DNA of 61,719 nt, the filler included, from a bacterium UBP13_UBA5359 (GTDB lineage Bacteria > UBP13 > UBA5359): NCBI GenBank assembly GCA_002410925.1. It is 4 parts of 4 records of this genome, joined end to end, with 100 filler letters (N's around TTAATTAATTAA, not from the genome) between each part and the next. Parts side by side here need not be neighbours in the genome. Positions count along the whole stretch, not along the records: positions 30,846 to 61,719 come from DHPR01000018.1; 3 more parts are not named here. One strand, written 5' to 3'. The notes beneath the pieces are model-generated. The model made no database searches, was not told the origin of the DNA, and saw only the letters and a program-made list of their open reading frames with translations. Position 1 is the first letter of the stretch; each line of letters starts with the position of its first letter. Of this stretch, positions 30,802 to 59,279 are shown in pieces. Both the position numbers and the translations under genes were made by a program.

Positions 30802-30846
30802 NNNNNNNNNNNNNNNNNNNNNNNNNNNNNNNNNNNNNNNNNNNNC

Positions 30847-39814: not shown

Positions 39815-39961
39815 CGCACCTCCGCAGGAACCGAAAATTTGCGGCTTTATCTTATCATGGGAAAGGCCAAAGTGTCAAAGCAACGGCTCTTTTCCTATGT
39901 TTGGACAGAACGATTATGGGTAAATATTTCTACAAAGCAACAATACGATTTTGGGGTAAGC

Positions 39962-40384
39962 ATGAGCGTTACCGAAAAGGATAACGTCATAATCTTTATC
40001 TTTCCAAGCAATACATGTTATATCAGTACCATGCGAATATTGCTCGGAGATCTGGCCGAGAAAGAGAATTTCTCCTACCAGGATATTGAAGATATGAAAG
40101 TTGCGGTATCGGAAGCCTGTTCCAATGCCATCCTGCATGGTTACAGTCTCATCAGGCCATTTGTTACCGTAGCTTTCGAGCTTTTGCAGGATAGAATGAT
40201 TATAAAGATCACCGACCACGGACGCGGGCTGACAGCCAAAAGGAAACCGCTGACTGATAAGGGAGAACCGACGGAAAAGGGGCTGGGGTTGGGCATATAT
40301 CTCATGCAGGCTCTCATGGATAAGGTGGAATATTCCGCTCCGGAAGATCAGGGTACTGTTGTTAAGCTTACCAAGATTAAATAG
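39962..40384 (+). CDS. RsbW/SpoIIAB-like anti-sigma factor Ser/Thr kinase (HATPase_c_2)
   Basis: DMKVAVSEACSNAILHG, DHGRG, GLGIYLMQALMD; start moved to ATG 39962. Confidence 0.85.
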   Translation: MSVTEKDNVIIFIFPSNTCYISTMRILLGDLAEKENFSYQDIEDMKVAVSEACSNAILHGYSLIRPFVTVAFELLQDRMIIKITDHGRGLTAKRKPLTDKGEPTEKGLGLGIYLMQALMDKVEYSAPEDQGTVVKLTKIK

Positions 40385-40388
40385 TGCT

Positions 40389-41177
40389 TTAATCCGGCTT
40401 CATCAGCATCTCTAACGCTGAAGCGCACCTGCGGCTAACCGGCAAACGCGTCTTTTGCATATCAAGCATGATTACATCGTAAACGCGGTCCCCCACAGGA
40501 AGTATCTCCTTTATTTTTCTACCATTAACCAGGCAACTGCGACTGATGCGAATAAACCCCAGAGCCTTCCAACTCTCTTCCAGCTCCTGAATGGAGGATT
40601 GCACCATGTGCCTCTCTCCCTTATCCGTATAAGCAAAAACCGTACGATCCTCTGATTGGAAATAGAGCATATCGGAAGGATTAAAAAGCTGCACTCTATC
40701 CTTAAGCTTCAAAGGGATTCTATCATTAAAACAGCCGCCGCCTTTAGCAGGCTGTTCCGTATCAGCGAGGGAATTCTCCCTTCCTCCCTCCTTAAGTATC
40801 TGCCTTTCCGAAACAACCTTTTTCAGCCATTCAACCGCTTTGCGTAACCGCTCTTCATCATAAGGTTTCAAAATATAATCTACCGAATGCAGCTCAAAAG
40901 CGGATACTGCAAATTCATCATAGGCGGTGACAAAAACTATAGCGGGTTCCTCGCCCTTCTCAGAGAGTGTACGCGCCACTGCCAAACCATCCAGATCCGG
41001 CATCTTTACATCAAGAAAGAGAGCCTCCGGCTTCAGCTTCTGTACCATATCTATAGCCTCAAAACCGGAGCCGGCCCGTCCTATGATATCAATGCCGCCG
41101 ATGTCGTCAAGATAATACGTCAGAAGATCCAACGATCTCAAATCATCGTCAACTATTACTGTCCTTATCATCACCAA
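40389..41177 (-). CDS. LytTR family response regulator
   Basis: REC motifs IVDDD, FLDVKMP, FVTAY, DYILKP; LytTR motifs FIRISRSCLVN, LPVSRR. Confidence 0.95.
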   Translation of the reverse strand: MVMIRTVIVDDDLRSLDLLTYYLDDIGGIDIIGRAGSGFEAIDMVQKLKPEALFLDVKMPDLDGLAVARTLSEKGEEPAIVFVTAYDEFAVSAFELHSVDYILKPYDEERLRKAVEWLKKVVSERQILKEGGRENSLADTEQPAKGGGCFNDRIPLKLKDRVQLFNPSDMLYFQSEDRTVFAYTDKGERHMVQSSIQELEESWKALGFIRISRSCLVNGRKIKEILPVGDRVYDVIMLDMQKTRLPVSRRCASALEMLMKPD

Positions 41178-43403
41178 TCAGCACATACTCCTTAGATATT
41201 CCGCCTTTAAAGGCAACCTTATAGTGAACTTGCTTCCTTTGCCGCTTCTGCTTTCAAGTTCAATGCTTCCGTGGTGTTCGCTGATTATCTTATGCGCCAG
41301 CGATAACCCTAAACCGGTGCCATCCTTCTTTGTGGTGAAGAACGGATTGAATATCTTATCTCTGAGATCTATGGGAATACCTTCACCGCTATCGGCGATA
41401 GCAATATACAGCCATCCGTTGCCGGTACCGGCAGAAATGCTTATTTCTCCGCTGTTAGCAGTAGCCTCTACAGCATTTAGAATCACGTTAAGCAATGCGC
41501 GCTGCAAGCGAACAGCATCAACGTTAGCTTCCGGCAATTCGCTATAATCTTTCGACAATCGTATGCCTTTTTCCTTTATTCTAGGTTCAGAAAGCCGGAT
41601 TGTTTCGAAAAGCATAGATTGCATATCCGTCAAGGCCATCCTGCGGCTGCTATCACGAGCAAATTCAAGAAGGCTGGTCGTCAGCTCGTTAAGGTGAATA
41701 GCTTCATTCCGCACAACACTCAGCTGCGGGCTGATATCTCCATTCATCTTCATCGACATGGCGGCATAGCCGTTAATAAGATTGAGTGAGTTACGTATCT
41801 CATGTGATAACCCTGCCGTCATTTCACCTATAGCCGCCAACTTCTCGCGTCGCAGAGCTAAACGTTCCATCTCCTTTATTTCAGTTATATCGTTAAATAC
41901 CAGAATAACCGCGCCGGTCTGCTCACTTTGGGGATTCATAAGCGAGCTGTGGGCGGAAACTATTTTATTGGTTCCCGGCAGCTCGATCTCCCGTCCAAGA
42001 CAGGGTCTTCTCTGTTGCGCATTGGCGATAATATCATTGAAGACCGATAAGACCTTAAAGCCCTCAATATGCGCTCCCTGCGCCCGGCAAATCGCAATAC
42101 CGGTTATCATACTGGCGGCATTGTTAAAGGTAATGATCCCTCCACCCGGATTTACTACCACCACCCCGCTGGTCATACTGGCCAGGATATTCTCATTATA
42201 GCGCTTGACGGAAATTATCTCTGTATAAAAATCCTCCAGCTTGCCGGACATCTCATTAAAAGTGCCTGCCAACTCCGCAATCTCATCCTCGCCCTGCACC
42301 TGTACGCGCTCCTCAAAGCGTCCCATACCTAAAACCTTGATACTGGATACCAATGCCAAAAGAGGCTTGGTAATACTCCGTGCCTGGCTCATGCCCGCCA
42401 TGTAGGTCAACAGGATGCTAAGCACCAGCGTCCATATTGCCAGGCGCCGTATCCTGTAGGCGGCAGCATAGGCTTCTGCCATATTCTGCTGCACCGCCAC
42501 GGTCCATCCCAGACTGGGCATATAAGCATAGGCGTTAAGGGTAGCCGTTCCGGATTCATCAAGAGCTTCATAGGCGCCCCTACCCTTGCCGGCAACACTG
42601 GCGGCCTCAAAGCCTTGCATATGGATCTGCTTCAACACCCGCCTGGTGTCGCGATGAGCTATCAAACAGCCATCCTTGTCCGTCACCAGAGCCCGGCCGG
42701 TATGGCCGAGCTTGATGCTATCGATAAGATTCCACATGTCGCACAAGGTTACTTCCGCCAGAAGCAAACCGGCATTATTTCCTAACCGAGTTATGGGAAC
42801 GGCTATGGTCACACATGGAACCTGGTAACTGTTCATATATACGCTGGATATAGCCTCTTTGCCCTTTAACGCCACTTCAATTATTTCGGCATCCTGGAGG
42901 CTGGTTGCCGATTCATTCAGATTACTAGCGGCTAAAGCCTTACCGCTTGCATCATAAAGTGTCAGGTCATTGAAAGCAGCAAAATGCAAGGAGAGATTGC
43001 GCAGCAGAAGCTCCTGCCGCCATGGATCCATTGGGGATGCGGCTATAACTCCGGCACATCCTCTCAGCATGGATTTGGCCGATTCAACATAACTCTCGAT
43101 ATGCCTGGCCGCCCTTGCAGCCACCTGTATATTGCCGTAAGTAACCGCCTTCTTAACAGTGCGCTGCCCCGTCCAGGTTACCAAAAGGCCTGAAATTAAT
43201 ATAGGAACGCTGGTCAAACAGAGCATGATTATAAGCAGGCGCCGGTGCAGACTCTGTTTTCGGCTGGTGATAAAATCTGTCATACCCATAAGGCCGGCCA
43301 GCTTGAGTCCTGTATTCACAACCAATCGCCAGGCATGCTGAAGATACTGCCCTTTGAGAGATATATCCTCTCCAGATAATTTATGCATCGATAACAGCTC
43401 CAA
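41178..43403 (-). CDS. Sensor histidine kinase (TM-dCache-TM-HAMP-PAS-HisKA-HATPase)
   Basis: Cache motifs LIAH and WTVAV; HAMP DEIAELAGTFNEM; H-box AGLSHEIRNSL; NAVEA, DSGEGI, PFFTTK, GTGLGL. True start probably near 43283. Confidence 0.92.
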   Translation of the reverse strand: MELLSMHKLSGEDISLKGQYLQHAWRLVVNTGLKLAGLMGMTDFITSRKQSLHRRLLIIMLCLTSVPILISGLLVTWTGQRTVKKAVTYGNIQVAARAARHIESYVESAKSMLRGCAGVIAASPMDPWRQELLLRNLSLHFAAFNDLTLYDASGKALAASNLNESATSLQDAEIIEVALKGKEAISSVYMNSYQVPCVTIAVPITRLGNNAGLLLAEVTLCDMWNLIDSIKLGHTGRALVTDKDGCLIAHRDTRRVLKQIHMQGFEAASVAGKGRGAYEALDESGTATLNAYAYMPSLGWTVAVQQNMAEAYAAAYRIRRLAIWTLVLSILLTYMAGMSQARSITKPLLALVSSIKVLGMGRFEERVQVQGEDEIAELAGTFNEMSGKLEDFYTEIISVKRYNENILASMTSGVVVVNPGGGIITFNNAASMITGIAICRAQGAHIEGFKVLSVFNDIIANAQQRRPCLGREIELPGTNKIVSAHSSLMNPQSEQTGAVILVFNDITEIKEMERLALRREKLAAIGEMTAGLSHEIRNSLNLINGYAAMSMKMNGDISPQLSVVRNEAIHLNELTTSLLEFARDSSRRMALTDMQSMLFETIRLSEPRIKEKGIRLSKDYSELPEANVDAVRLQRALLNVILNAVEATANSGEISISAGTGNGWLYIAIADSGEGIPIDLRDKIFNPFFTTKKDGTGLGLSLAHKIISEHHGSIELESRSGKGSKFTIRLPLKAEYLRSMC

Positions 43404-43499
43404 TTCCGGTATTTTTGTTATAGCGAGCCTATTTCAAGCTATAACCCGCATGCAAAAATACCGCAGAAAACACCGATAAATCTATGAAAATATAAATAC

Positions 43500-43529
43500 G
43501 CGCTTGTCGGCACCGAAACAGCGCTTGTA
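43500..43529 (+). promoter_or_regulatory. Pair of GCGCTTGT boxes at 21-bp spacing upstream of the kinase gene (candidate LytTR site)
   Basis: CGCTTGT at 43501 and 43522; same core as the 47341-47416 array. Confidence 0.4.
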
Positions 43530-43573
43530 TAGCCGGCTCCGGCCATAGGCAGAGACACCCCTTCAGCTATAGC

Positions 43574-45178
43574 TTACTGCTGCTTTGTTTGATACCGCTC
43601 AGGGATATACCATTCCTCTATATTCCAGATTACACCCTGATCGCAGGGGGATATTCCCTTGAAATACCGATTGATACCCACCAGTTCGTTTAGATGGAAA
43701 AGAAATGCTACCGGTAAATCATCGGCCAGCAAACGATGCAGAGCTCTATAGGCATTGCAGCAATCTTCTTCGTTTTTTGCCCGGCGTCCGGCCATAATCA
43801 GCTTATCTGCCTGCAAATTATTGTAGGAACTGAAATTCAAGCCATCGTTTGTTTGCGAAGAATGGAATGTCCTGTATATTACACTAGGGTCAGGAGCAGT
43901 AATGGCCTCAATAAACAGAATATCGAAGTTGCGTGGCATCATATAATTATTGATCAGAACCGAGACATCAAGACAAACTATATTAAGCTTGATTCCAACC
44001 TCAGCAAGTTGTTGCTGTATCAGCAGCGCCGATTTATCCTTGATATCATTGCCTTTATCATAAAGGAGAGTGATTGCTAATTCCCTGCCGTTTTTATCCA
44101 GGATACCATCGCCGTCGGTATCGCCCCAGCCCAGGCTGCACAGCAGCTTCACAGCCTTAGGGGGATTATAGGCCGGCTCTCCTACATGGGGATTATTGGC
44201 CCAGGATGCGGGGGAGTACGGCCCCCGACAGACTGCCCCCTGCCCCAGCAGCGCCTTGTTAACAATCGCCTGACGATCAATGCACATGGATATAGCCTGC
44301 CTCAGACGCAGATTCTGAAAGAGCGGCCGCCTCATATTGAATACCAGCGAGTAGTAATAGGGCCGGCTATAATTGTAGCTTCTCAGGTGGGGATTGCGCT
44401 TGACCCGGTTGAAATCCTCCGCCGTCAGGCCGTAATCCATCCAGTCTATATCTCCGGCCTCCAGCTCAGCCCAGAGGGCGGTCAAGTCCTGATAACGTTT
44501 GAAGATTATCTTATCGATATGCGGCCGCCCGCGAAAGTACTTGTCATTAGCCACCAACATCGCTCTCTTTTCCGGAATAAATGATTCCAGACGATAACGT
44601 CCGGTGCCGACAGGACAAGTGGTAAATATGGGATCATCAAGCTTGCGGCCGGCACAGAGATGAGCCGGTAGAATACCGTAACGCATAGCGTAAATAAAGG
44701 GGGCAAAGGAGGTCTTGAGCTTGAAGACCACCTTGTATGGTCCCTTGCTCTCCACCGAATCGACTTCGCCCAGGTCTGCCGCCCACGCTGAGAAGTTTTT
44801 GGGGTCGAGAATGCTTTTATAGGTAAAGAGAACATCCTTACTGGTCAATTCCCGGCCGTCATGAAAGAGTATGCCCGGCCTTAAAAGAAAGGTCCAGATA
44901 CGTCCATCGGAAGAGACCGACCAGGCGGAGGCCAGGCAGGGTTGGGGGCGGTTATCCCTGTCCAGCCTCACCAGGCCGTCGTAGATGATATCATTGATCC
45001 AGCTACTGACACTCCAGCAAGTTATCACGGGGTTGAAAGGCTCGAAGTCACTGCTGGTGCCTATCACCAGCCGGCCGCCGTCAGGCACCGTATTATGCGA
45101 ATCCTGGCGATTGCATAATAGCACAGCGGCTATTACGGCCGCCACCATCAGAGCAAAGAAATAATTCCGGCACTTCAA
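43574..45178 (-). CDS. Family 5 (OppA/AppA-like) peptide substrate-binding protein, with no adjacent permease
   Basis: Signal peptide, IYDGLV, WTFLLRPGILFHDG, PVGTGRY, LRQAISMCIDR, GWGDTDGDGILDKNG. Confidence 0.9.
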   Translation of the reverse strand: MKCRNYFFALMVAAVIAAVLLCNRQDSHNTVPDGGRLVIGTSSDFEPFNPVITCWSVSSWINDIIYDGLVRLDRDNRPQPCLASAWSVSSDGRIWTFLLRPGILFHDGRELTSKDVLFTYKSILDPKNFSAWAADLGEVDSVESKGPYKVVFKLKTSFAPFIYAMRYGILPAHLCAGRKLDDPIFTTCPVGTGRYRLESFIPEKRAMLVANDKYFRGRPHIDKIIFKRYQDLTALWAELEAGDIDWMDYGLTAEDFNRVKRNPHLRSYNYSRPYYYSLVFNMRRPLFQNLRLRQAISMCIDRQAIVNKALLGQGAVCRGPYSPASWANNPHVGEPAYNPPKAVKLLCSLGWGDTDGDGILDKNGRELAITLLYDKGNDIKDKSALLIQQQLAEVGIKLNIVCLDVSVLINNYMMPRNFDILFIEAITAPDPSVIYRTFHSSQTNDGLNFSSYNNLQADKLIMAGRRAKNEEDCCNAYRALHRLLADDLPVAFLFHLNELVGINRYFKGISPCDQGVIWNIEEWYIPERYQTKQQ

Positions 45179-45195
45179 ATCGGGCCTCCTGCAAG

Positions 45196-46503
45196 CTACT
45201 CCTCCAGCGCCATTATTTTAACATATTCACGGCCCACTTTGTTAAAAAAACCTTTCTCGCAGGCTACTCCGCGGTAATCTCCCCTCTTGACAAAGGCGGC
45301 GTAGCGGCAGCCACCTCCGCAAATCGGCATAAAATTGCACTGCCGGCACTCCCAGAAGAAGCCGACATTAAGCGCCTCCAGATGGCGGCCGTCAAAGCCG
45401 GTCTGGATATGTCCCACGCAGAACTCATCCCGGCCGGCAAAGGCCTCGCACTTATACATAGCGCCATCGGCATTGATAACCACCGAGGCCTCCCGCAGTG
45501 CATGGCAGGGCCCTATAGCCAGATCGACTACCGTATTAATGCCCCTTTTTCGTGCTTCCCGATGCATTCGGGGAAAGTGCTCTATCGCCTTGCTCTCAGA
45601 GCAGGTCCGGCCATAGCAGCTGCCCTTCCGAGAAGAGCGCAGATATATGGTATCGAGTATGGGTTTAAACCGCATCTGAGCTATCTTACCGCTAAGGCGA
45701 TCCACCCGAAGACGGTCCATCAGCCGAATGACGCTCTCCTGATTATCGTTGGCCAGGTTGACGGTCAGCACCAAATTTACCAGATCGGCTATTGCCGATA
45801 TATTGCTCATAATAGTTTCAAAAGTGCCCTCGCCGTCAAGAAATGGGCGATGCTCATCATGGCAGCGGGCGTCGCCGTCAAGCGTTACCCTTACCTCATG
45901 CAGCCCCAGCTCCCGCCACGCCTCTAGCTGCTCCCGCTGCAGCAATGTACCATTGGTTATCAGTGTGGCGCCAAAGGCTATACCCCTCAAGCTCGTTTCT
46001 TTATGAAGGCGGGTAAGGACCAGCTCTAGCAAATGGGGTACCAGCAGAGCCTCCCCGCCCATAATAATTATCTCCAGTGAGCGTGATCCGGCCTCATCCG
46101 CACTCTTTGCCAGCCACTCCACCGCCCTGCAGCAGGTATCCTCATCCATATGGCTGCTGATATCCGAGCCCTCCTGCACGCAGTAGATGCAGGCCAGGTT
46201 ACAGGCGCCGGTCAGAATGAAGGTGGCGTCATAAGTGCTCTTGTCGCTGACAAAGGCATTGTACTGCTCATCATATAAGGCCAGCTCATCTGCCTCCCTG
46301 GGAACCACCATGCCTATGCTGCAGAGCTGATCGGCCATCTCCCGCTCCTCCGGCCGGACTTCATCGCCGCAGGTCCACTCATACATGCGATCTCTCAATT
46401 CACGCCCCACTACAGCTACCGAGCCGTGCAGGGTATTATAGATCATGACTGAGCCGCTGCGGTCGGGATGACCTTCATAATAGTTGAAGATAGAAGATTT
46501 CAT
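45196..46503 (-). CDS. Radical SAM/SPASM domain peptide maturase
   Basis: N-terminal RRE-like segment (IYNTLHG), CNLACIYC, MGGEALL, TNG, VTLDG; SPASM cysteines C...YKC...CRQC...CGGGC...C. Start at ATG 46503 after GGAGGT. Confidence 0.92.
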   Translation of the reverse strand: MKSSIFNYYEGHPDRSGSVMIYNTLHGSVAVVGRELRDRMYEWTCGDEVRPEEREMADQLCSIGMVVPREADELALYDEQYNAFVSDKSTYDATFILTGACNLACIYCVQEGSDISSHMDEDTCCRAVEWLAKSADEAGSRSLEIIIMGGEALLVPHLLELVLTRLHKETSLRGIAFGATLITNGTLLQREQLEAWRELGLHEVRVTLDGDARCHDEHRPFLDGEGTFETIMSNISAIADLVNLVLTVNLANDNQESVIRLMDRLRVDRLSGKIAQMRFKPILDTIYLRSSRKGSCYGRTCSESKAIEHFPRMHREARKRGINTVVDLAIGPCHALREASVVINADGAMYKCEAFAGRDEFCVGHIQTGFDGRHLEALNVGFFWECRQCNFMPICGGGCRYAAFVKRGDYRGVACEKGFFNKVGREYVKIMALEE

Positions 46504-46566
46504 TGGTAAAGAACCTACCTCCGCTTCAGATAAAGTGAGAATCAGGCGCAAGATGCATCATTTTAA

Positions 46567-46629
46567 TCACCTAAGAATTACACAACCCAAGGGGCCGGGC
46601 TTGCCGGTACGAATAACCGTCAACTTCAT
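46567..46629 (-). CDS. Putative 20-aa RiPP precursor peptide MKLTVIRTGKPGPLGCVILR
   Basis: Missed by the ORF track. Near-perfect RBS GGAAGGAGGTGG before ATG; lies directly upstream of the rSAM/SPASM gene; single Cys near the C-terminus. Confidence 0.75.
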   Translation of the reverse strand: MKLTVIRTGKPGPLGCVILR

Positions 46630-46678
46630 TTTACCACCTCCTTCCCGCTCTTTATTGCTTTAACCTGTAAAAAATATC

Positions 46679-47242
46679 TCAGCTTTCTTCCTGGGGTTTA
46701 TCTTTACGTTGATATATGCGCCTGATCCTCGAGCTGTAAAGCTCCCCAAGCTGAGGGTTGATGTTAACCGTTCCGGGGTCTCCCCTTTCATCCAGGATAA
46801 AATAGTTCTCTTTATTACCGTCAAAGGGATAAAGCCTGGAAAGAGGATTACGACGAATATCCACAATATCATTCTGCCTGTTTCTGACCGATATTATCTC
46901 ATAGCAGGTATCAGGGTTTACCCAAATGGGAAGATCGCGATTCATATAAAGATCGTTAGTGCTATTATCACCACGGCCACTTCTGATCTTTATATTGCCA
47001 TAGGACTCCAGCAATACAGATGGGAAATAGTATTCATCCATTATTCCTATACGCTGCACCATACGCAGCAGCCAATGGGTAATATCAAGGGGGTAAGAAC
47101 AACGGCTCTTGACCTCGATAAACTCTCTGTCAAGGTCTACCCAGCGCCCATGCTCCCGACGGGGGCCGGAGCCATCTATACCTATCGTCACAATCTGTAA
47201 CGGGAAGAGCTCCTTTTCTATCTGCCTTACCCTCTTTTCCAT
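46679..47242 (-). CDS. Lamin tail domain (LTD)-like protein without a signal peptide
   Basis: EFIEVK...LDITHWLLR...YYFPS...IKIRSGRGDNSTNDLYMNR...IW matches the LTD pattern E-Y-V-E-I...VDLTGW...YTFP...TGxG..T..DLYW. Confidence 0.6.
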   Translation of the reverse strand: MEKRVRQIEKELFPLQIVTIGIDGSGPRREHGRWVDLDREFIEVKSRCSYPLDITHWLLRMVQRIGIMDEYYFPSVLLESYGNIKIRSGRGDNSTNDLYMNRDLPIWVNPDTCYEIISVRNRQNDIVDIRRNPLSRLYPFDGNKENYFILDERGDPGTVNINPQLGELYSSRIRRIYQRKDKPQEES

Positions 47243-47340
47243 ACCGTGATATCACCTGCCCAGTAGCATATCGTCATACCGATTGCCTGTATTACACAGA
47301 AGCTATCTTTGACTTTGAGGGCACTAAACCCTATATCAAA

Positions 47341-47416
47341 TACAAAAGTGGCCGGTTTTGGGGTACAAATGGCCGGAATTCAGGTACAAGCGGCCGGTTT
47401 TAAGGTACAAGCGGCC
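47341..47416 (-). promoter_or_regulatory. Four direct repeats at exact 21-bp period (minus-strand core GGCCGCTTGTACC), candidate LytTR operator array
   Basis: GGCC cores at 47350, 47371, 47392 and 47413. Two-helical-turn periodicity is typical of LytTR sites, and the core resembles the AlgR box ACCGTTCGTC. Confidence 0.7.
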
Positions 47417-47444
47417 AATCCCGCATGAAAGGCGGGTTTTAGAA

Positions 47445-47548
47445 TGTGAACAATCTGTTAATTAGCGTTGATAAAAAAGCTATCCACATTTACATGTCCA
47501 CAAACCCGTGTGGCAAGTGTTAATGTTAATTAATGTGTCTGTGAATAA
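47445..47548. promoter_or_regulatory. Cluster of DnaA-box-like nonamers in an AT-rich intergenic stretch
   Basis: TTGTTCACA (-, 47445), CTATCCACA (+, 47480), ATGTCCACA (+, 47494), TTATTCACA (-, 47540). Confidence 0.45.
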
Positions 47549-47621
47549 CTTTTTACGTAAGCCTTTGGGATGAGGAGTTTGCATTAGCATTATGGAAGAG
47601 TTTTCGAGTGAATGTCCTAAC

Positions 47622-48467
47622 TTATATCAGCCTTATGTTATCTATCAAGCGGGTATTACCCAGCCGTGCTGCGACAAGCATGACGGCGCCGGGGCGTAAT
47701 TCATGTAACAGCTGAAGGCTGTCGCCGTCGGCAATCTCCAGATATTCCAGTTGCAAAGCGGGCTGAGAGGCTATTCTGTCCAGTGCATAACGGCGTATCG
47801 CCTGAATATCTTCTTCACCAGAGGCCGCCGCTTCTGCCGCCGCTCTCAATGCTTTGTAAAGCCACGGAGCCACGGAGCGCTCTTCCGGAGAAAGATATTT
47901 ATTGCGGGAGCTCATGGCCAGCCCATCAGCTTCGCGCACGATAGGCACAGAGAGAATCTTCAGCGGCAGATCGAGGTCTTGTGCAAACCGACGTATCACC
48001 TGTAACTGCTGGTAATCCTTCTCCCCAAAATAAGCCTGGTCAGGATCGGTCATATTAAATAGTTTAAGCACAACTGTTGCTACGCCTCTGAAATGGCCGG
48101 GGCGGGAGGCACCGCACAGGCAATTCGCCAGGCTTCCTTCCACCTCTACCCAGGTATTGAATCCGGCAGGATATATTTCTGCGGCTGCGGGCGCAAAGAC
48201 CAGATCAGCACCGACTTCTGCGGCAACCTGAAGATCTCTCTTCAAGGTTCTGGGATAGCGGTCTAAATCTTCATTAGGAGCGAATTGAGCAGGATTGACA
48301 AAGATGCTGACTATGGTAAAGCAGCCATCCTTGGCTGCCTGCGCTATAAGAGCGGCATGCCCGCAGTGCAGAGCGCCCATGGTGGGTACCAGCCCTATTT
48401 TACGCCCCTCCCTCCGGGCTGCTTTCACAGCCCGGCGCAAATCGGCAATCCTCTCTATGCACTGCAT
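47622..48467 (-). CDS. panC: Pantoate--beta-alanine ligase
   Basis: [52 protein letters not shown]. Confidence 0.97.
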
Positions 48468-57622: not shown

Positions 57623-58405
57623 ATGGAGCTTACAAAGAGTACAGTTATCGTCACCGGAGCGGGAAGCGGAATAGGCCGTGCCCTGGCTCTGGAATTTGCC
57701 CGCAATGGGGCCAATGTTGTTTGCTGCGGACGCAGAAAGGAGTTGCTGGATGAAACAGCCGCTCTGATCTGTCAGGAGGATGGTGTTGGGCTTGCCGTGC
57801 CTGCAGATATCACCGACAGGGACCAGGTTAGGCATCTTGTAGATACCGCTGTTGCCTCCTTCGGCACGGTGGATATTCTCTTCAACAATGCCGGCAGCTT
57901 CCGATCCATCGCCGCCCTTCATGAAACAGACCCTGAGGTCTGGTGGCAAGACATAACCGTCAACCTCTACGGATCTATGCTGGTAACCAGGGAAGTGCTG
58001 CCGCATATGCTGCAACGCAACCGAGGCATAATTATAAGCATGGATGGAGGACGGCCTGCCGGTGGTACAGGATACGCCTGCGGCAAGGCTGCTCTCATGG
58101 AGATGACACGCTTGCTGGCCAAGGAACTGAAGATACTGAAAAGTTCAGTAATGGTCTTTTCCGCCGGACCCGGGTTTGTTCATACGGAGATGACGGAGCT
58201 ACAGGCAAACACTGAGGCCGGCCGGAAATGGATCCCTTCCACCAAGGAGAGCATTGAAGCAGGCAAAACACGCCGCCCGGAGGATATAGCGCTGGCAACT
58301 ATGCAGCTGGTCCGCCATGCCCGCCCGGAATGGAGCGGCAAGGGTTATTCATCCGATACGGATTTCTCACGCAAGGGGGTCAATCCTTTACTTTTAACAT
58401 CTTGA
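57623..58405 (+). CDS. Short-chain dehydrogenase/reductase
   Basis: TGAGSGIG, NNAG, YACGK, GPGFVHT. Confidence 0.92.
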   Translation: MELTKSTVIVTGAGSGIGRALALEFARNGANVVCCGRRKELLDETAALICQEDGVGLAVPADITDRDQVRHLVDTAVASFGTVDILFNNAGSFRSIAALHETDPEVWWQDITVNLYGSMLVTREVLPHMLQRNRGIIISMDGGRPAGGTGYACGKAALMEMTRLLAKELKILKSSVMVFSAGPGFVHTEMTELQANTEAGRKWIPSTKESIEAGKTRRPEDIALATMQLVRHARPEWSGKGYSSDTDFSRKGVNPLLLTS

Positions 58406-59279
58406 GCTTGCTGATAATACGGCTGACAGATACATAGCTTAACCCAAGATGTTCCGCCACTTCCCTCTGTAGATAGCCGTATTCGCAGCAGGCTCTGTAA
58501 ATCGTCCTGTTTCTGACTGATATATCATCCGCATCAGCAAAAATATCATCTAAACCAGGGCGCAAATTGCCTTTCTGCGCCCTTGCGGGCAATGCCATCT
58601 TCTCGAGATAAGGACGTATCGTTTGGGCATATTTATCACTGCCCAGAATTAGGCCGCCTTTCAGGCTTTTCCAGGGGCTTTCTGCTCCAACACCGTCAAG
58701 GACAAATCGGCAATACGATTGCCGTGCCTCGGTTATTTCAACACCAAACTGGGAGAGAATCCAGACGGTATCTACAAGACCGGTCTCTGCTTCTATACCT
58801 GCCGTCACTCTATAGCTGCTCCACCTCCATTGAGATGGCTCTTTGACTATACCCGCCCGCACCGGGTTCAAGGCTATATACCGGCACACCTCAAGCAGAT
58901 GGTTCTCTTTCTCTACCAGAACGGATTTGAACCTGCCCTGGAATAAATGCCCGCTTATACCGCGTATCCTGTTGAATCTCTGTGCATAACTGCTGTTTAT
59001 TCGTCTCATGCCCTCCGAAAGATTGGCATCAGGCGTCTCCAACAACAGATGGTAATGGTTGCCCATAAGACAGTAAGCATAAATCAGCCAGTTGAAATCC
59101 TGCCGAACATCCGAAACTATATCCAAAAAGGCTTCTCTTTCAGAGTCAGCCAGATATATGGCGTTGCCACCATTGCCTCTGGCCGTCACATGATAGACGG
59201 CATTGGGATATTCCACTCTTAACGATCTAGCCATGACCTTATTATAGCCGACTTATGTTAAAAGTAAAGGATTGACCCC
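58376..59279 (-). mobile_element. RAYT/TnpA-REP element bounded by perfect 25-bp inverted repeats, next to tRNA-Arg
   Basis: GGGGTCAATCCTTTACTTTTAACAT at 58376-58400 and its reverse complement at 59255-59279. Confidence 0.8.
58380..59234 (-). CDS. REP-associated tyrosine transposase (Y1 HUH) with C-terminal HTH
   Basis: YHVTARGN, AYCLMGNHYHLL, GHLFQGRF, RYIALNPVRAG, WRWSSY; C-terminal QREVAEHLGLSYVSVSR. Confidence 0.92.
   Translation of the reverse strand: MARSLRVEYPNAVYHVTARGNGGNAIYLADSEREAFLDIVSDVRQDFNWLIYAYCLMGNHYHLLLETPDANLSEGMRRINSSYAQRFNRIRGISGHLFQGRFKSVLVEKENHLLEVCRYIALNPVRAGIVKEPSQWRWSSYRVTAGIEAETGLVDTVWILSQFGVEITEARQSYCRFVLDGVGAESPWKSLKGGLILGSDKYAQTIRPYLEKMALPARAQKGNLRPGLDDIFADADDISVRNRTIYRACCEYGYLQREVAEHLGLSYVSVSRIISKLKMLKVKD

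Follow-up and report, generated by a model that had tools for sequence, protein, structure and literature searches.

Does a short, enzyme-modified peptide act as its own inducer in a bacterium with an outer membrane? The question is raised by a run of genes on the minus strand of a 61,719-nucleotide stretch of DNA (the window, i.e., the whole stretch that was analysed), which resembles a peptide signalling loop that induces itself, a kind unstudied in outer-membrane bacteria. The operon reads, in order, a set of direct repeats, a lamin-tail-domain (LTD) gene, a 20-codon ORF, and the genes of a radical SAM (rSAM)/SPASM enzyme, an SBP_bac_5 binding protein, a dCache-HAMP kinase and a REC-LytTR regulator. 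A preliminary description had proposed this run as a candidate new quorum-sensing circuit. Every element that it named is found on the minus strand, and its reading of the locus as a whole is partly supported. The genes are as follows.

46679..47242, minus strand: divergent LTD protein of 187 aa, first gene after the repeats
46567..46629, minus strand: precursor peptide of 20 aa, MKLTVIRTGKPGPLGCVILR, whose only Cys is four residues away from the C-terminus
45196..46503, minus strand: rSAM/SPASM maturase, geopeptide-like, with the cluster motif CNLACIYC (Radical_SAM E 1e-13)
43574..45178, minus strand: orphan SBP_bac_5 binding protein (E 1e-82) with an N-terminal hydrophobic signal
41178..43403, minus strand: sensor histidine kinase, likely start ATG 43388
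40389..41177, minus strand: response regulator with REC and LytTR domains, likely start ATG 41171

The host belongs to a tiny uncultured phylum that is represented by three genomes (G000, G001 and G002). The host genome, G000, has 2.25 Mb and is 98.4% complete. The parts and their order are kept in all three genomes. The operon is flanked by panC, thiC and thiG on one side and by an RsbW-like kinase, hisD and a HAD hydrolase on the other. As the preliminary description had noticed, there is no exporter or leader protease in the locus; likewise, no C39 peptidase was found in the 98.4% complete genome.

The sequence argues that the precursor gene is real. A strong ribosome-binding site, GGAGG, lies 7 nt upstream of the ORF, and the codon changes between G000 and G001 are mostly synonymous (6 synonymous, 1 non-synonymous). 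In addition, the leader is invariant in the three genomes, while the tail after the Cys differs (VILR, VILR and IMFR). The geopeptide precursor model TIGR04229 (cut-off 30 bits) gives no match to the host peptide at E<=10, with a Geotalea toluenoxydans peptide scoring 40.5 bits as positive control. A family of single-Cys precursors, i.e., ORFs of 20-28 aa with the pattern MK.K[IV][IV]KKG...C-x(5-6) and hydrophobic or aromatic tails, is present in 42 of 48 metagenomic loci that run from an rSAM gene to an SBP_bac_5 gene. The host peptide fits MK.x[VI][VI][KR]xG with one Cys 4-7 residues from the C-terminus and a gene beside rSAM, a fit that is descriptive, since the pattern was formulated with the family already in view.

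The enzyme has the features of an rSAM/SPASM maturase. The three cysteines of its CxxxCxxC motif (C101, C105 and C108) are invariant in 32 homologues, and the C-terminal SPASM domain scores 48.2 bits with TIGR04085 against a cut-off of 27. Of the named maturase families, the geopeptide one that had been suggested for comparison, TIGR04280, is indeed the best-scoring; however, the host enzyme reaches 259.1 bits, below the cut-off of 400. The complete orthologues of G000 and G001 score 258.6-265.2 bits, and that of G002, whose gene is cut by a contig end, 79.9 bits. A quick IQ-TREE analysis of 100 rows groups the geopeptide maturases linked to PF04392 in a single clade (SH-aLRT 100), with the host and G001 enzymes outside it on a long branch. 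Membership in TIGR04280 was rejected on both the score and the placement. By score and tree, then, the host maturase is a relative of this family and not a member.

Which genes accompany such maturases elsewhere? We have inspected the 80 best metagenomic relatives of the enzyme, many of which are near-copies, so that the counts overstate independent events. In the 47 loci with at least 2.6 kb downstream, SBP_bac_5 directly follows rSAM in 33, a dCache kinase is present in 33, and both are present in 32; this comparison supports the functional tie that had been drawn between peptide and maturase on one side and binding protein, kinase and regulator on the other. Where each flank extends for 4 kb or more (21 loci), there are 18 with SBP_bac_5, 17 with the dCache kinase, 12 with a sigma-54 activator and 11 with a TonB receptor. 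The proposed synteny thus stands for the binding protein and the kinase and fails for the regulator: the REC/EBP neighbours in related loci include Sigma54_activat in 36 of 42, and LytTR in none of the 42 or of any related locus sampled. A stringent TGGCA-N-TTGC promoter stands just before rSAM in 15 of 38 SBP_bac_5-type loci (background rate 0.013 per 320 nt), and the window has no such sigma-54 promoter. Since the relatives combine sigma-54 activators with sigma-54 promoters and the host combines LytTR with repeats, the regulator and its cis-element appear to have been swapped together. Such a joint swap argues that the two-component system governs the peptide operon.

The same set of peptide, rSAM, binding protein, kinase and regulator recurs in distant lineages with different types of binding protein and regulator. 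In the geopeptide clade of Geobacterales and Nitrospirota (TIGR04229 and TIGR04280), it comprises PF04392, a HAMP kinase, a sigma-54 regulator and a TonB receptor. The host resembles these loci in its best family match, in a short precursor whose leader is hydrophobic and beta-strand-like and whose Cys is near the C-terminus, and in a transporter-less periplasmic binding protein beside a HAMP kinase and a regulator. It differs in that its maturase stays below the TIGR04280 cut-off and lies outside the fully supported clade, its peptide carries one Cys instead of the geopeptide CC and escapes TIGR04229, SBP_bac_5 replaces PF04392, LytTR replaces sigma-54, and no TonB receptor is present. Nearer are the metagenomic loci L088-L167, L016 and L008, with a single-Cys peptide, rSAM, SBP_bac_5, dCache kinase, sigma-54 regulator and, in part, a TonB receptor. 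They share with the host the precursor type and the core of rSAM, SBP_bac_5 and dCache kinase; the rSAM proteins are 30-35% identical and the binding proteins 29-36%, with one outlier at 18% (the binding protein of L016 is 32% identical, E 2e-81). Unlike the host with its LytTR regulator and four 21-bp repeats, they have sigma-54 promoters with AACTTTTTGGCC boxes. Most of them place the precursor gene after rSAM, before the SBP gene, while in the host it comes before rSAM. The host peptide is also shorter (20 aa, 4-residue tail), and the host adds the LTD gene and a PAS-sized kinase segment and lacks the TonB receptor. Judged by these relatives, the locus represents a widespread but unstudied geopeptide-like module in a LytTR version and is not an isolated invention, so that the free-standing novelty suggested for the circuit does not hold. 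Full-text searching of the literature found no paper on the system.

The conserved linkage fits equally well a loop whose binding protein and kinase sense something else. They might respond to an unrelated external cue, e.g., oligopeptides, a metal complex or a nutrient, and the LytTR regulator would then turn on the modified peptide as an output, e.g., an antimicrobial or membrane-active RiPP, rather than as a signal. Two-component control is common in RiPP and bacteriocin clusters, and the hydrophobic, aromatic tails would suit such a product. The best NCBIfam matches point the same way, being nutrient-sensing BtsR for the regulator (152 bits, below the cut-off of 246) and NikA/Opp/CntA-type transport proteins, all under their cut-offs, for the binding protein. 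Against this, peptide and rSAM stay with binding protein and kinase across phyla despite the exchange of PF00496 for PF04392 and the changes of regulator, most loci have the precursor gene between those of rSAM and SBP, and no immunity or export genes accompany the host locus. We regard this explanation as unlikely.

In the locus, no ABC permease or ATPase gene lies next to the gene of the binding protein. A periplasmic location is predicted for this protein, as it is for the dCache domain of the kinase, and together these features suggest sensing rather than import. The kinase comprises a TM segment, the periplasmic dCache_1, a second TM segment, HAMP, a PAS-sized linker, HisKA and HATPase_c. 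Of the dCache-HAMP-PAS arrangement described before, dCache_1 and HAMP exceed their cut-offs, as do HisKA and HATPase_c, while the PAS assignment is weak (17.4 bits vs 22.6). A transporter-less periplasmic binding protein beside a kinase with a periplasmic domain recalls the LuxP/LuxQ-type kinases; those systems differ in the family of the binding protein and in ligand class, and in the host the interaction of the two proteins is putative.

The same proteins would also suit a peptide that is secreted as a metallophore-like compound, re-imported and captured by the binding protein, with the kinase reporting the loaded form. Methanobactin, with its TonB receptor MbnT and SBP5-type MbnE, is the model for this explanation. 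TonB-dependent receptors do occur in 11 of the 21 well-flanked relatives and in geopeptide loci, and metallophore binders are found within SBP_bac_5, with the NikA and CntA models among the best matches of the host protein. The peptides, however, have one Cys, no His/Cys-rich motif and aromatic or aliphatic tails, and an rSAM thioether would probably use up the sole thiol. No ABC permease or ATPase adjoins the binding protein. A dedicated TonB receptor is absent from the host genome as well, since the one TonB-dependent receptor encoded there follows a cobalamin riboswitch and is thus BtuB-like. That receptor also indicates the outer membrane of the host. The SBP5 element is the only one that methanobactin operons have in common with the locus, in which the Pfam scan finds no Mbn-type enzymes (MbnB/MbnC). 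Overall, we consider scavenging improbable.

The regulator scores above the cut-offs with both Response_reg (78 bits) and LytTR (70.7 bits); the host genome encodes one further LytTR protein. The upstream elements are as follows.

47445..47548, minus strand: conserved block of three DnaA-box-like 9-mers and AT-rich spacers, read from the sequence
47548-47540, minus strand: DnaA-box-like 9-mer 1, TTATTCACA
47488-47480, minus strand: DnaA-box-like 9-mer 2, TGTGGATAG
47453-47445, minus strand: DnaA-box-like 9-mer 3, TTGTTCACA
47420..47436, no strand assigned: short GC hairpin, CCCGC-N7-GCGGG, separating the box block from the repeats, with the stem kept in three genomes and a varying loop
47333..47416, minus strand: four direct repeats with a period of 21 bp, candidate LytTR operator

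Tandem Repeats Finder reports a period of 21, 3.4 copies and 80% matches at 47346-47416. Read on the minus strand, the array has four units from 47416 to 47333 with the core GGCCRYTNGTACC, the fourth being degenerate (GGCCACTTTTGTA). A two-unit phased pattern matches the window twice, in overlapping positions, and gives no match in any of 100 dinucleotide shuffles. Moreover, the 2.25 Mb of G000 contain no other phased site, and in G001 and G002 no exact two-unit phased match lies outside the array, with 0 matches for a reversed-pattern control. The core positions are invariant in the three-genome alignment while the spacers vary. According to the part of PMC2766830 consulted, the targets of LytTR regulators in peptide systems are pairs of direct repeats with a period of 21 bp, and published sites consist of 9-bp repeats with a 12-bp spacer, or 10 and 11 for SilA, with which the pairing of LytTR and 21-bp repeats in the preliminary description agrees. 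We therefore propose the repeats as the candidate operator of the LytTR regulator of the locus. By visual reading, the best-guess -10 would place the proximal repeat near -70 to -58, farther upstream than in agr-type promoters; a promoter scan gave no match supporting this -10. The hairpin, which the terminator scan does not call, may insulate the operon from panC read-through.

Given the three adjoining DnaA-box-like 9-mers, the repeats could belong to another protein. The box block is nearly invariant across the three genomes, and in G001 and G002 each of the three boxes is an exact TTATCCACA. Such 9-mers with AT-rich spacers and phased 21-bp repeats resemble iteron origins, so that the whole might serve replication or partition as an iteron-type element, or be a mobile cassette with a promoter, and lie next to the operon by chance. 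In G002, a second copy of the ~190-bp module of boxes and repeats, truncated to two repeats, lies on another contig upstream of a Y1 transposase-like (Y1_Tnp) gene, and hence the module is not strictly tied to the peptide operon. Except for this copy, the array occurs in the three genomes only at the peptide operon, where the module always holds the same place before the LTD gene. Furthermore, the contig bears the housekeeping genes panC, thiC, thiG and hisD, an adjacent rep gene is absent, the GC skew is negative on both sides of the repeats, and dnaA has its own box cluster on another contig. The operon also encodes a LytTR protein, a family known to bind such repeats (PMC2766830, in the part consulted). 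A chance neighbour of this kind seems very improbable.

We return to autoinduction, and put at about even the chance that the locus is a self-contained geopeptide-like autoinduction module rewired to a LytTR regulator. The phosphorylated regulator would bind the four helically phased repeats and activate one transcript from the LTD gene through the precursor, rSAM, SBP and kinase genes to its own, as family behaviour, adjacency and the uniqueness of the site suggest. From its enzyme family, the maturase is expected to recognise the conserved leader MKLxV[IV][KR]xG and to install a cross-link, most likely a thioether, with the single Cys16 near the C-terminus. The small hydrophobic product would leave the cell by a putative export step and bind the transporter-less SBP_bac_5 in the periplasm, which would signal through the dCache domain, a step suggested by the conserved linkage. 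The kinase would then phosphorylate the regulator and close a positive loop. For the modified peptide being the signal that the binding protein and kinase sense, the chances seem roughly balanced.

The agr, ComCDE, Blp and Sil systems have in common with the host a LytTR-type regulator, 21-bp-period direct repeats upstream of the signal operon (PMC2766830, in the part consulted), the autoinduction logic as proposed here, and a small peptide with a Cys few residues from the C-terminus. As had been stated for agr, the host differs, since Pfam scans of all locus proteins find neither an AgrB-type protease nor a polytopic HPK10/AgrC-type kinase. Its maturase is an rSAM enzyme, and sensing would use a periplasmic SBP and a dCache kinase in a cell with an outer membrane. 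In the streptococcal SHP/Rgg systems (streptide type), a quorum-sensing-linked rSAM/SPASM enzyme also modifies a short peptide; the signal there, however, is a separate unmodified SHP sensed by cytoplasmic Rgg, and the RiPP is the output. No Rgg or SHP occurs at the locus, and the distinction from these systems holds.

The first gene of the operon is an addition relative to the related loci sampled. The LTD protein has no signal peptide or membrane segment, is confined to the host genus in a word-based search, and has no match in 160 related rSAM loci. Its LTD label is tentative. With PF00932, whose cut-off is 34.3, the three orthologues reach only 15.1-19.1 bits; however, phmmer against 1.84 billion representatives gives 52 matches at E<=1e-3 (best E 5e-12), and all 10 of those scanned carry PF00932. 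The ESM Atlas likewise points to LTD clusters, with 0.93 as feature score and 0.57 as structure TM.

The precursor ORF is bracketed by one more element.

46537..46730, minus strand: 14-bp inverted repeat with arms at 46717-46730 and 46537-46550

The z-score of the whole-region RNA fold, -1.46, is not significant. The stem appears in both the MFE and the centroid folds, and in the three genomes 13 pairs are invariant and one G-C changes to G-U, with 0 compensatory changes. It is possibly an RNA stem for processing or stability.

The locus lies on contig C28 of genome G000 (2.25 Mb in 40 contigs, 98.4% complete), which supplies positions 30846–61719 of the window, the rest (1–30845) being not C28. 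It is a co-directional minus-strand run between panC (47622–48467) and a convergent RsbW-like kinase gene (39839–40384), with housekeeping flanks on both sides (panC, thiC and thiG on one, hisD and a HAD hydrolase gene on the other). Domain and repeat scans recovered every element that the preliminary description had listed in the window:

47416–47333, minus strand: four 21-bp direct repeats with core GGCCRYTNGTACC; fourth unit degenerate
46679–47242, minus strand: 187-aa ORF, divergent lamin-tail-domain (LTD) protein
46567–46629, minus strand: 20-codon ORF, MKLTVIRTGKPGPLGCVILR; GGAGG 7 nt upstream
45196–46503, minus strand: radical SAM (rSAM)/SPASM enzyme (Radical_SAM E 1e-13; SPASM 48 bits)
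43574–45178, minus strand: SBP_bac_5 (SBP5) protein (E 1e-82)
41178–43403, minus strand: kinase, dCache_1-HAMP-HisKA-HATPase_c
40389–41177, minus strand: REC-LytTR regulator, REC and LytTR each above cut-off

The PAS match of the kinase is weak (17.4 bits vs a cut-off of 22.6). From the LTD gene to the SBP gene the intergenic gaps are 49, 63 and 17 nt in operon order, about 185 nt separate the SBP gene from the conserved ATG of the kinase at 43388, and the kinase and regulator genes have no gap between them. The SBP–kinase spacer (window 43404–43573, compared with 10395–10483 of L006, the G001 locus) carries a ~94-nt insertion in G000 relative to G001. The operon run includes no gene for a permease, ATPase, exporter or protease, and no C39 peptidase exporter was found genome-wide in G000 at its 98.4% completeness. 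The GTDB phylum consists of three species genomes of one genus (G000, G001 and G002), and all three carry the locus.

The LTD label of the 187-aa protein probably holds, in the sense of a divergent member. According to the hydrophobicity analysis, this protein has neither a signal peptide nor a membrane segment; a word-based search confines it to the genus, and it is absent from all the related loci. Its AlphaFold2 model, made from the single sequence, is poor (pLDDT 35).

The 20-codon ORF is also kept in 3/3 genomes, reading MKLTVIRVGKPGPLGCVILR in G001 and MKLTVIRVGKPGILGCIMFR in G002. Between G000 and G001 there are six synonymous codon differences and one non-synonymous; between G001 and G002 there are two synonymous ones and four non-synonymous ones, all of these four conservative and three located in the tail after the Cys (manual count). 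This pattern indicates that the leader is fixed and that the C-terminal tail drifts between species. On this sequence evidence, the ORF is taken as a genuine precursor gene. A 14-bp inverted repeat (arms 46717–46730 and 46537–46550, 166 nt apart) flanks the ORF on both sides and is found in each of the three genomes; a single pair changes from G-C to G-U, and compensatory changes are absent. A terminator-like hairpin inside the ORF (46597–46583) was discarded as scan noise, since such sites numbered 7 against 6.3 expected.

Among the rSAM-SBP5 metagenomic loci, 42 of 48 show a precursor ORF of 20–28 aa between the rSAM and SBP genes (e.g., MKLQVVKKGSRGDKKILWCWWWVGR and MKIIKKGDRKENSKPVFCAFFIM), as selected by a filter drawn up after the family had been seen; the same filter finds none in the nearest tree neighbours of the rSAM enzyme (L091, L110, L128, L150, L152, L155 and L164). 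The window peptide has in common with these precursors the MKLxV[IV][KR]xG start and a single Cys with a short hydrophobic tail. It is the shortest member of the family, and its gene is 5′ of the enzyme gene, unlike in the metagenomic relatives. Recurring small ORFs upstream of rSAM in loci of the sigma-54 type (FWPFC..., WHNHC...) were also considered as precursors and rejected, being translated DNA motifs, namely TTTTGGCC boxes and TGGCAC-N5-TTGC promoters.

The preliminary description had suggested geopeptide-type enzymes as a named rSAM/SPASM family for comparison. The relationship was borne out, but membership was not: the best NCBIfam model of the maturase is TIGR04280, the geopeptide maturase, at 259 bits vs a cut-off of 400, and the nearest proteins outside the genus are only ~35% identical. 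The TIGR04229 geopeptide precursor model gave no match for the window peptide, with a Geotalea peptide scoring 40.5 bits as control. In a quick maximum-likelihood tree (100 rows; L037–L087 and ORFs incomplete or with X left out), the maturases linked to the PF04392 binding protein form one clade with support 100. The window and G001 sequences fall outside this clade; their long branch has a weak link (support 87) with loci in which SBP5 and dCache-kinase genes are also present, arranged differently. The score, the peptide model and the tree together place the locus beside the named geopeptide family, as a sister variant, and not within it. In the distant relatives L027 and L158, among them a Methanosaeta MAG, six or seven paralogous rSAM/SPASM genes stand in tandem arrays.

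A 32-sequence profile run against species-representative genomes recovered the classical geopeptide loci of Geobacterales and Nitrospirota. There the precursors (27–35 aa) have a leader of the '..VVLEEG..' type and a CC motif at the C-terminus, and the neighbouring genes encode a TonB-dependent receptor, PF04392 binding protein, HAMP kinase and sigma-54 activator. Scanning metagenomes with the 16 closest sequences gave 166 matches, of which the best 80 were kept (27–37% identity); matches in genomes numbered 538. Most of these best 80 loci have the order [sigma-54 activator]-[TonB receptor]-rSAM-SBP_bac_5-dCache kinase. Of the 47 with at least 2.6 kb downstream, 33 have SBP5 right after rSAM, 33 a dCache kinase and 32 both; of the 21 with at least 4 kb on both sides, the first two counts are 18 and 17, and a sigma-54 activator is present in 12, a TonB receptor in 11, and a LytTR or LTD protein in none. 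That is, from the circuit proposed in the preliminary description, the binding protein and dCache kinase are kept (both in 32/47), and the LytTR neighbour is found in 0 of the related loci.

Tandem Repeats Finder reports period 21 with 3.4 copies at 47346–47416, and a two-unit phased pattern has two overlapping matches in the window vs 0/100 dinucleotide shuffles. The core occurs 11 times in the whole G000 genome and is phased at 21 bp at this site only; in G001 and G002 the sole match of the exact phased pattern is upstream of this operon (reversed-pattern control, 0). Aligned across the three genomes, the core is the same at every position and the 8-nt spacers vary; immediately downstream of the array, 10 bp (one helical turn) are inserted in G002. 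As an excerpt of PMC2766830 describes, the LytTR regulators in autoinducing-peptide systems bind a pair of direct repeats, each 9–10 bp long, with spacers of 12–11 bp. The array is thus predicted as the likely operator of the operon's own LytTR regulator.

Directly upstream of the repeats is a strongly conserved block (window 47445–47548, minus strand; L006 6417–6525 and locus L007 1956–2059), in which three DnaA-box-like 9-mers lie within ~105 nt, and a small GC hairpin stands between block and repeats. The 9-mers are perfect TTATCCACA in G001 and G002, with one mismatch each in G000; perfect boxes number 35–42 per genome (reversed control 12–17). Repeats and boxes together could be read as an origin of replication or an iteron element, but this is a weak explanation, as the GC skew shows no turn at the site and dnaA with its own box cluster is on another contig. 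The operator reading also has to accommodate a second copy of the box, hairpin and repeat module in G002, on contig C374 (L180 4225–4420) between thyX and a Y1_Tnp gene, near-identical over ~170 nt but with the first and last repeats only. This copy marks either a second member of the regulon or a promoter module that has been relocated. The module is divergent from thyX and lies ~120 nt upstream of the IS200/RayT-like Y1_Tnp gene (L180 3274–4122, minus strand); the G000 counterpart of this gene (window 58383–59252, minus strand) is 49% identical and has no module.

The related loci use a different regulator. Among 42 receiver or enhancer-binding neighbours (loci L008–L036 and L088–L167), 36 carry Sigma54_activat and none LytTR, and blastp with the LytTR domain gave no match in loci outside the genus, though a highly divergent LytTR without a detectable receiver could escape. 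A stringent sigma-54 promoter lies within ~50 nt of the rSAM start in 15 of 38 SBP5-type loci (background rate, 0.013 per 320 nt). Several AACTTTTTGGCC boxes, including a pair 21 bp apart, precede these promoters and are probably enhancer sites of the sigma-54 activator; examples upstream of a TGGCAT-N5-TTGCT promoter are L088 120–260, L093 830–960 and L102 7560–7680. The upstream region of the window has no sigma-54 promoter, and in its place are the LytTR regulator and the four 21-bp repeats. In both versions the predicted target of the regulator is the operon for peptide, maturase and sensor, and this is the chief argument for a feedback loop. The exchange of regulator and matching promoter architecture together, with the rest kept, is a non-orthologous replacement and gives strong comparative evidence, at the sequence level, which suggests one loop. 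Overall, the earlier interpretation as a new, LytTR-autoinduced quorum-sensing circuit is supported in part.

Gene content, gene order, conservation and family-wide linkage are established. As to mechanism, the LytTR regulator would bind the 21-bp repeats, the rSAM enzyme would install a thioether-type cross-link at Cys16, and the modified peptide would be exported; the orphan binding protein would then capture the product, and the signal would pass through the periplasmic dCache domain of the kinase. Hydrophobicity analysis places kinase transmembrane segments at residues ~52–79 and 321–339 and shows the binding protein to begin with a signal-like segment. A complex prediction for binding protein residues 30–534 with kinase dCache residues 80–318 (own 24-row alignments) scored 0.13 (mark 0.32), which is uninformative either way. 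The only Plug-domain/TonB-dependent receptor of G000 (5011–7215 of L168, i.e., G000:C23:33000–45000) immediately follows a cobalamin riboswitch (RF00174, 81 bits) and was rejected as a receptor dedicated to the peptide. The lineage therefore does without the receptor that many relatives keep; we speculate that a very short peptide makes it unnecessary.

A full-text literature search of open-access papers returned no paper on the system, none for 'geopeptide', and only unrelated ones for TIGR04280, TIGR04229 or geopep. The kind is already named but experimentally unstudied, and the locus is its variant. Its new features are a LytTR output with an explicit candidate operator, a minimal peptide and an LTD gene; the SBP_bac_5/dCache subfamily, whose precursors have a single Cys, and the host lineage are also new.

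Peptide autoinduction is textbook knowledge in Gram-positive bacteria, and to our knowledge it is almost unknown in outer-membrane bacteria. We would tentatively entertain, as somewhat short of probable, that geopeptide-like modules are a widespread, unrecognised peptide quorum sensing of outer-membrane anaerobes. Leader-guided rSAM action would yield a small hydrophobic peptide, cross-linked C-terminally, with a function like that of a staphylococcal autoinducing peptide; an orphan binding protein would detect it in the periplasm and dock on a Cache-domain kinase. The window would be the most compact form (LytTR output, explicit operator repeats, no TonB receptor), and the tails that differ between species (VILR vs IMFR) would serve as pherotypes. 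If this is true, hundreds of metagenomic loci, and the geopeptide family, so far named but unstudied, would gain a function. One ~7-kb run holds the ribosomal peptide, rSAM maturase, transporter-less binding protein, kinase, regulator and its likely operator. Testing would be simplest with the LytTR version, which could be rebuilt in E. coli because a 20-aa substrate, one enzyme and one 84-bp operator suffice, with no sigma-54 dependence.

DNA near-identical to window 40389–47600 (at least half of the sampled words) is also present in runs X2–X5 of two studies, which are labelled fermentation metagenome and include no RNA run, with X1, a possible source, excluded.
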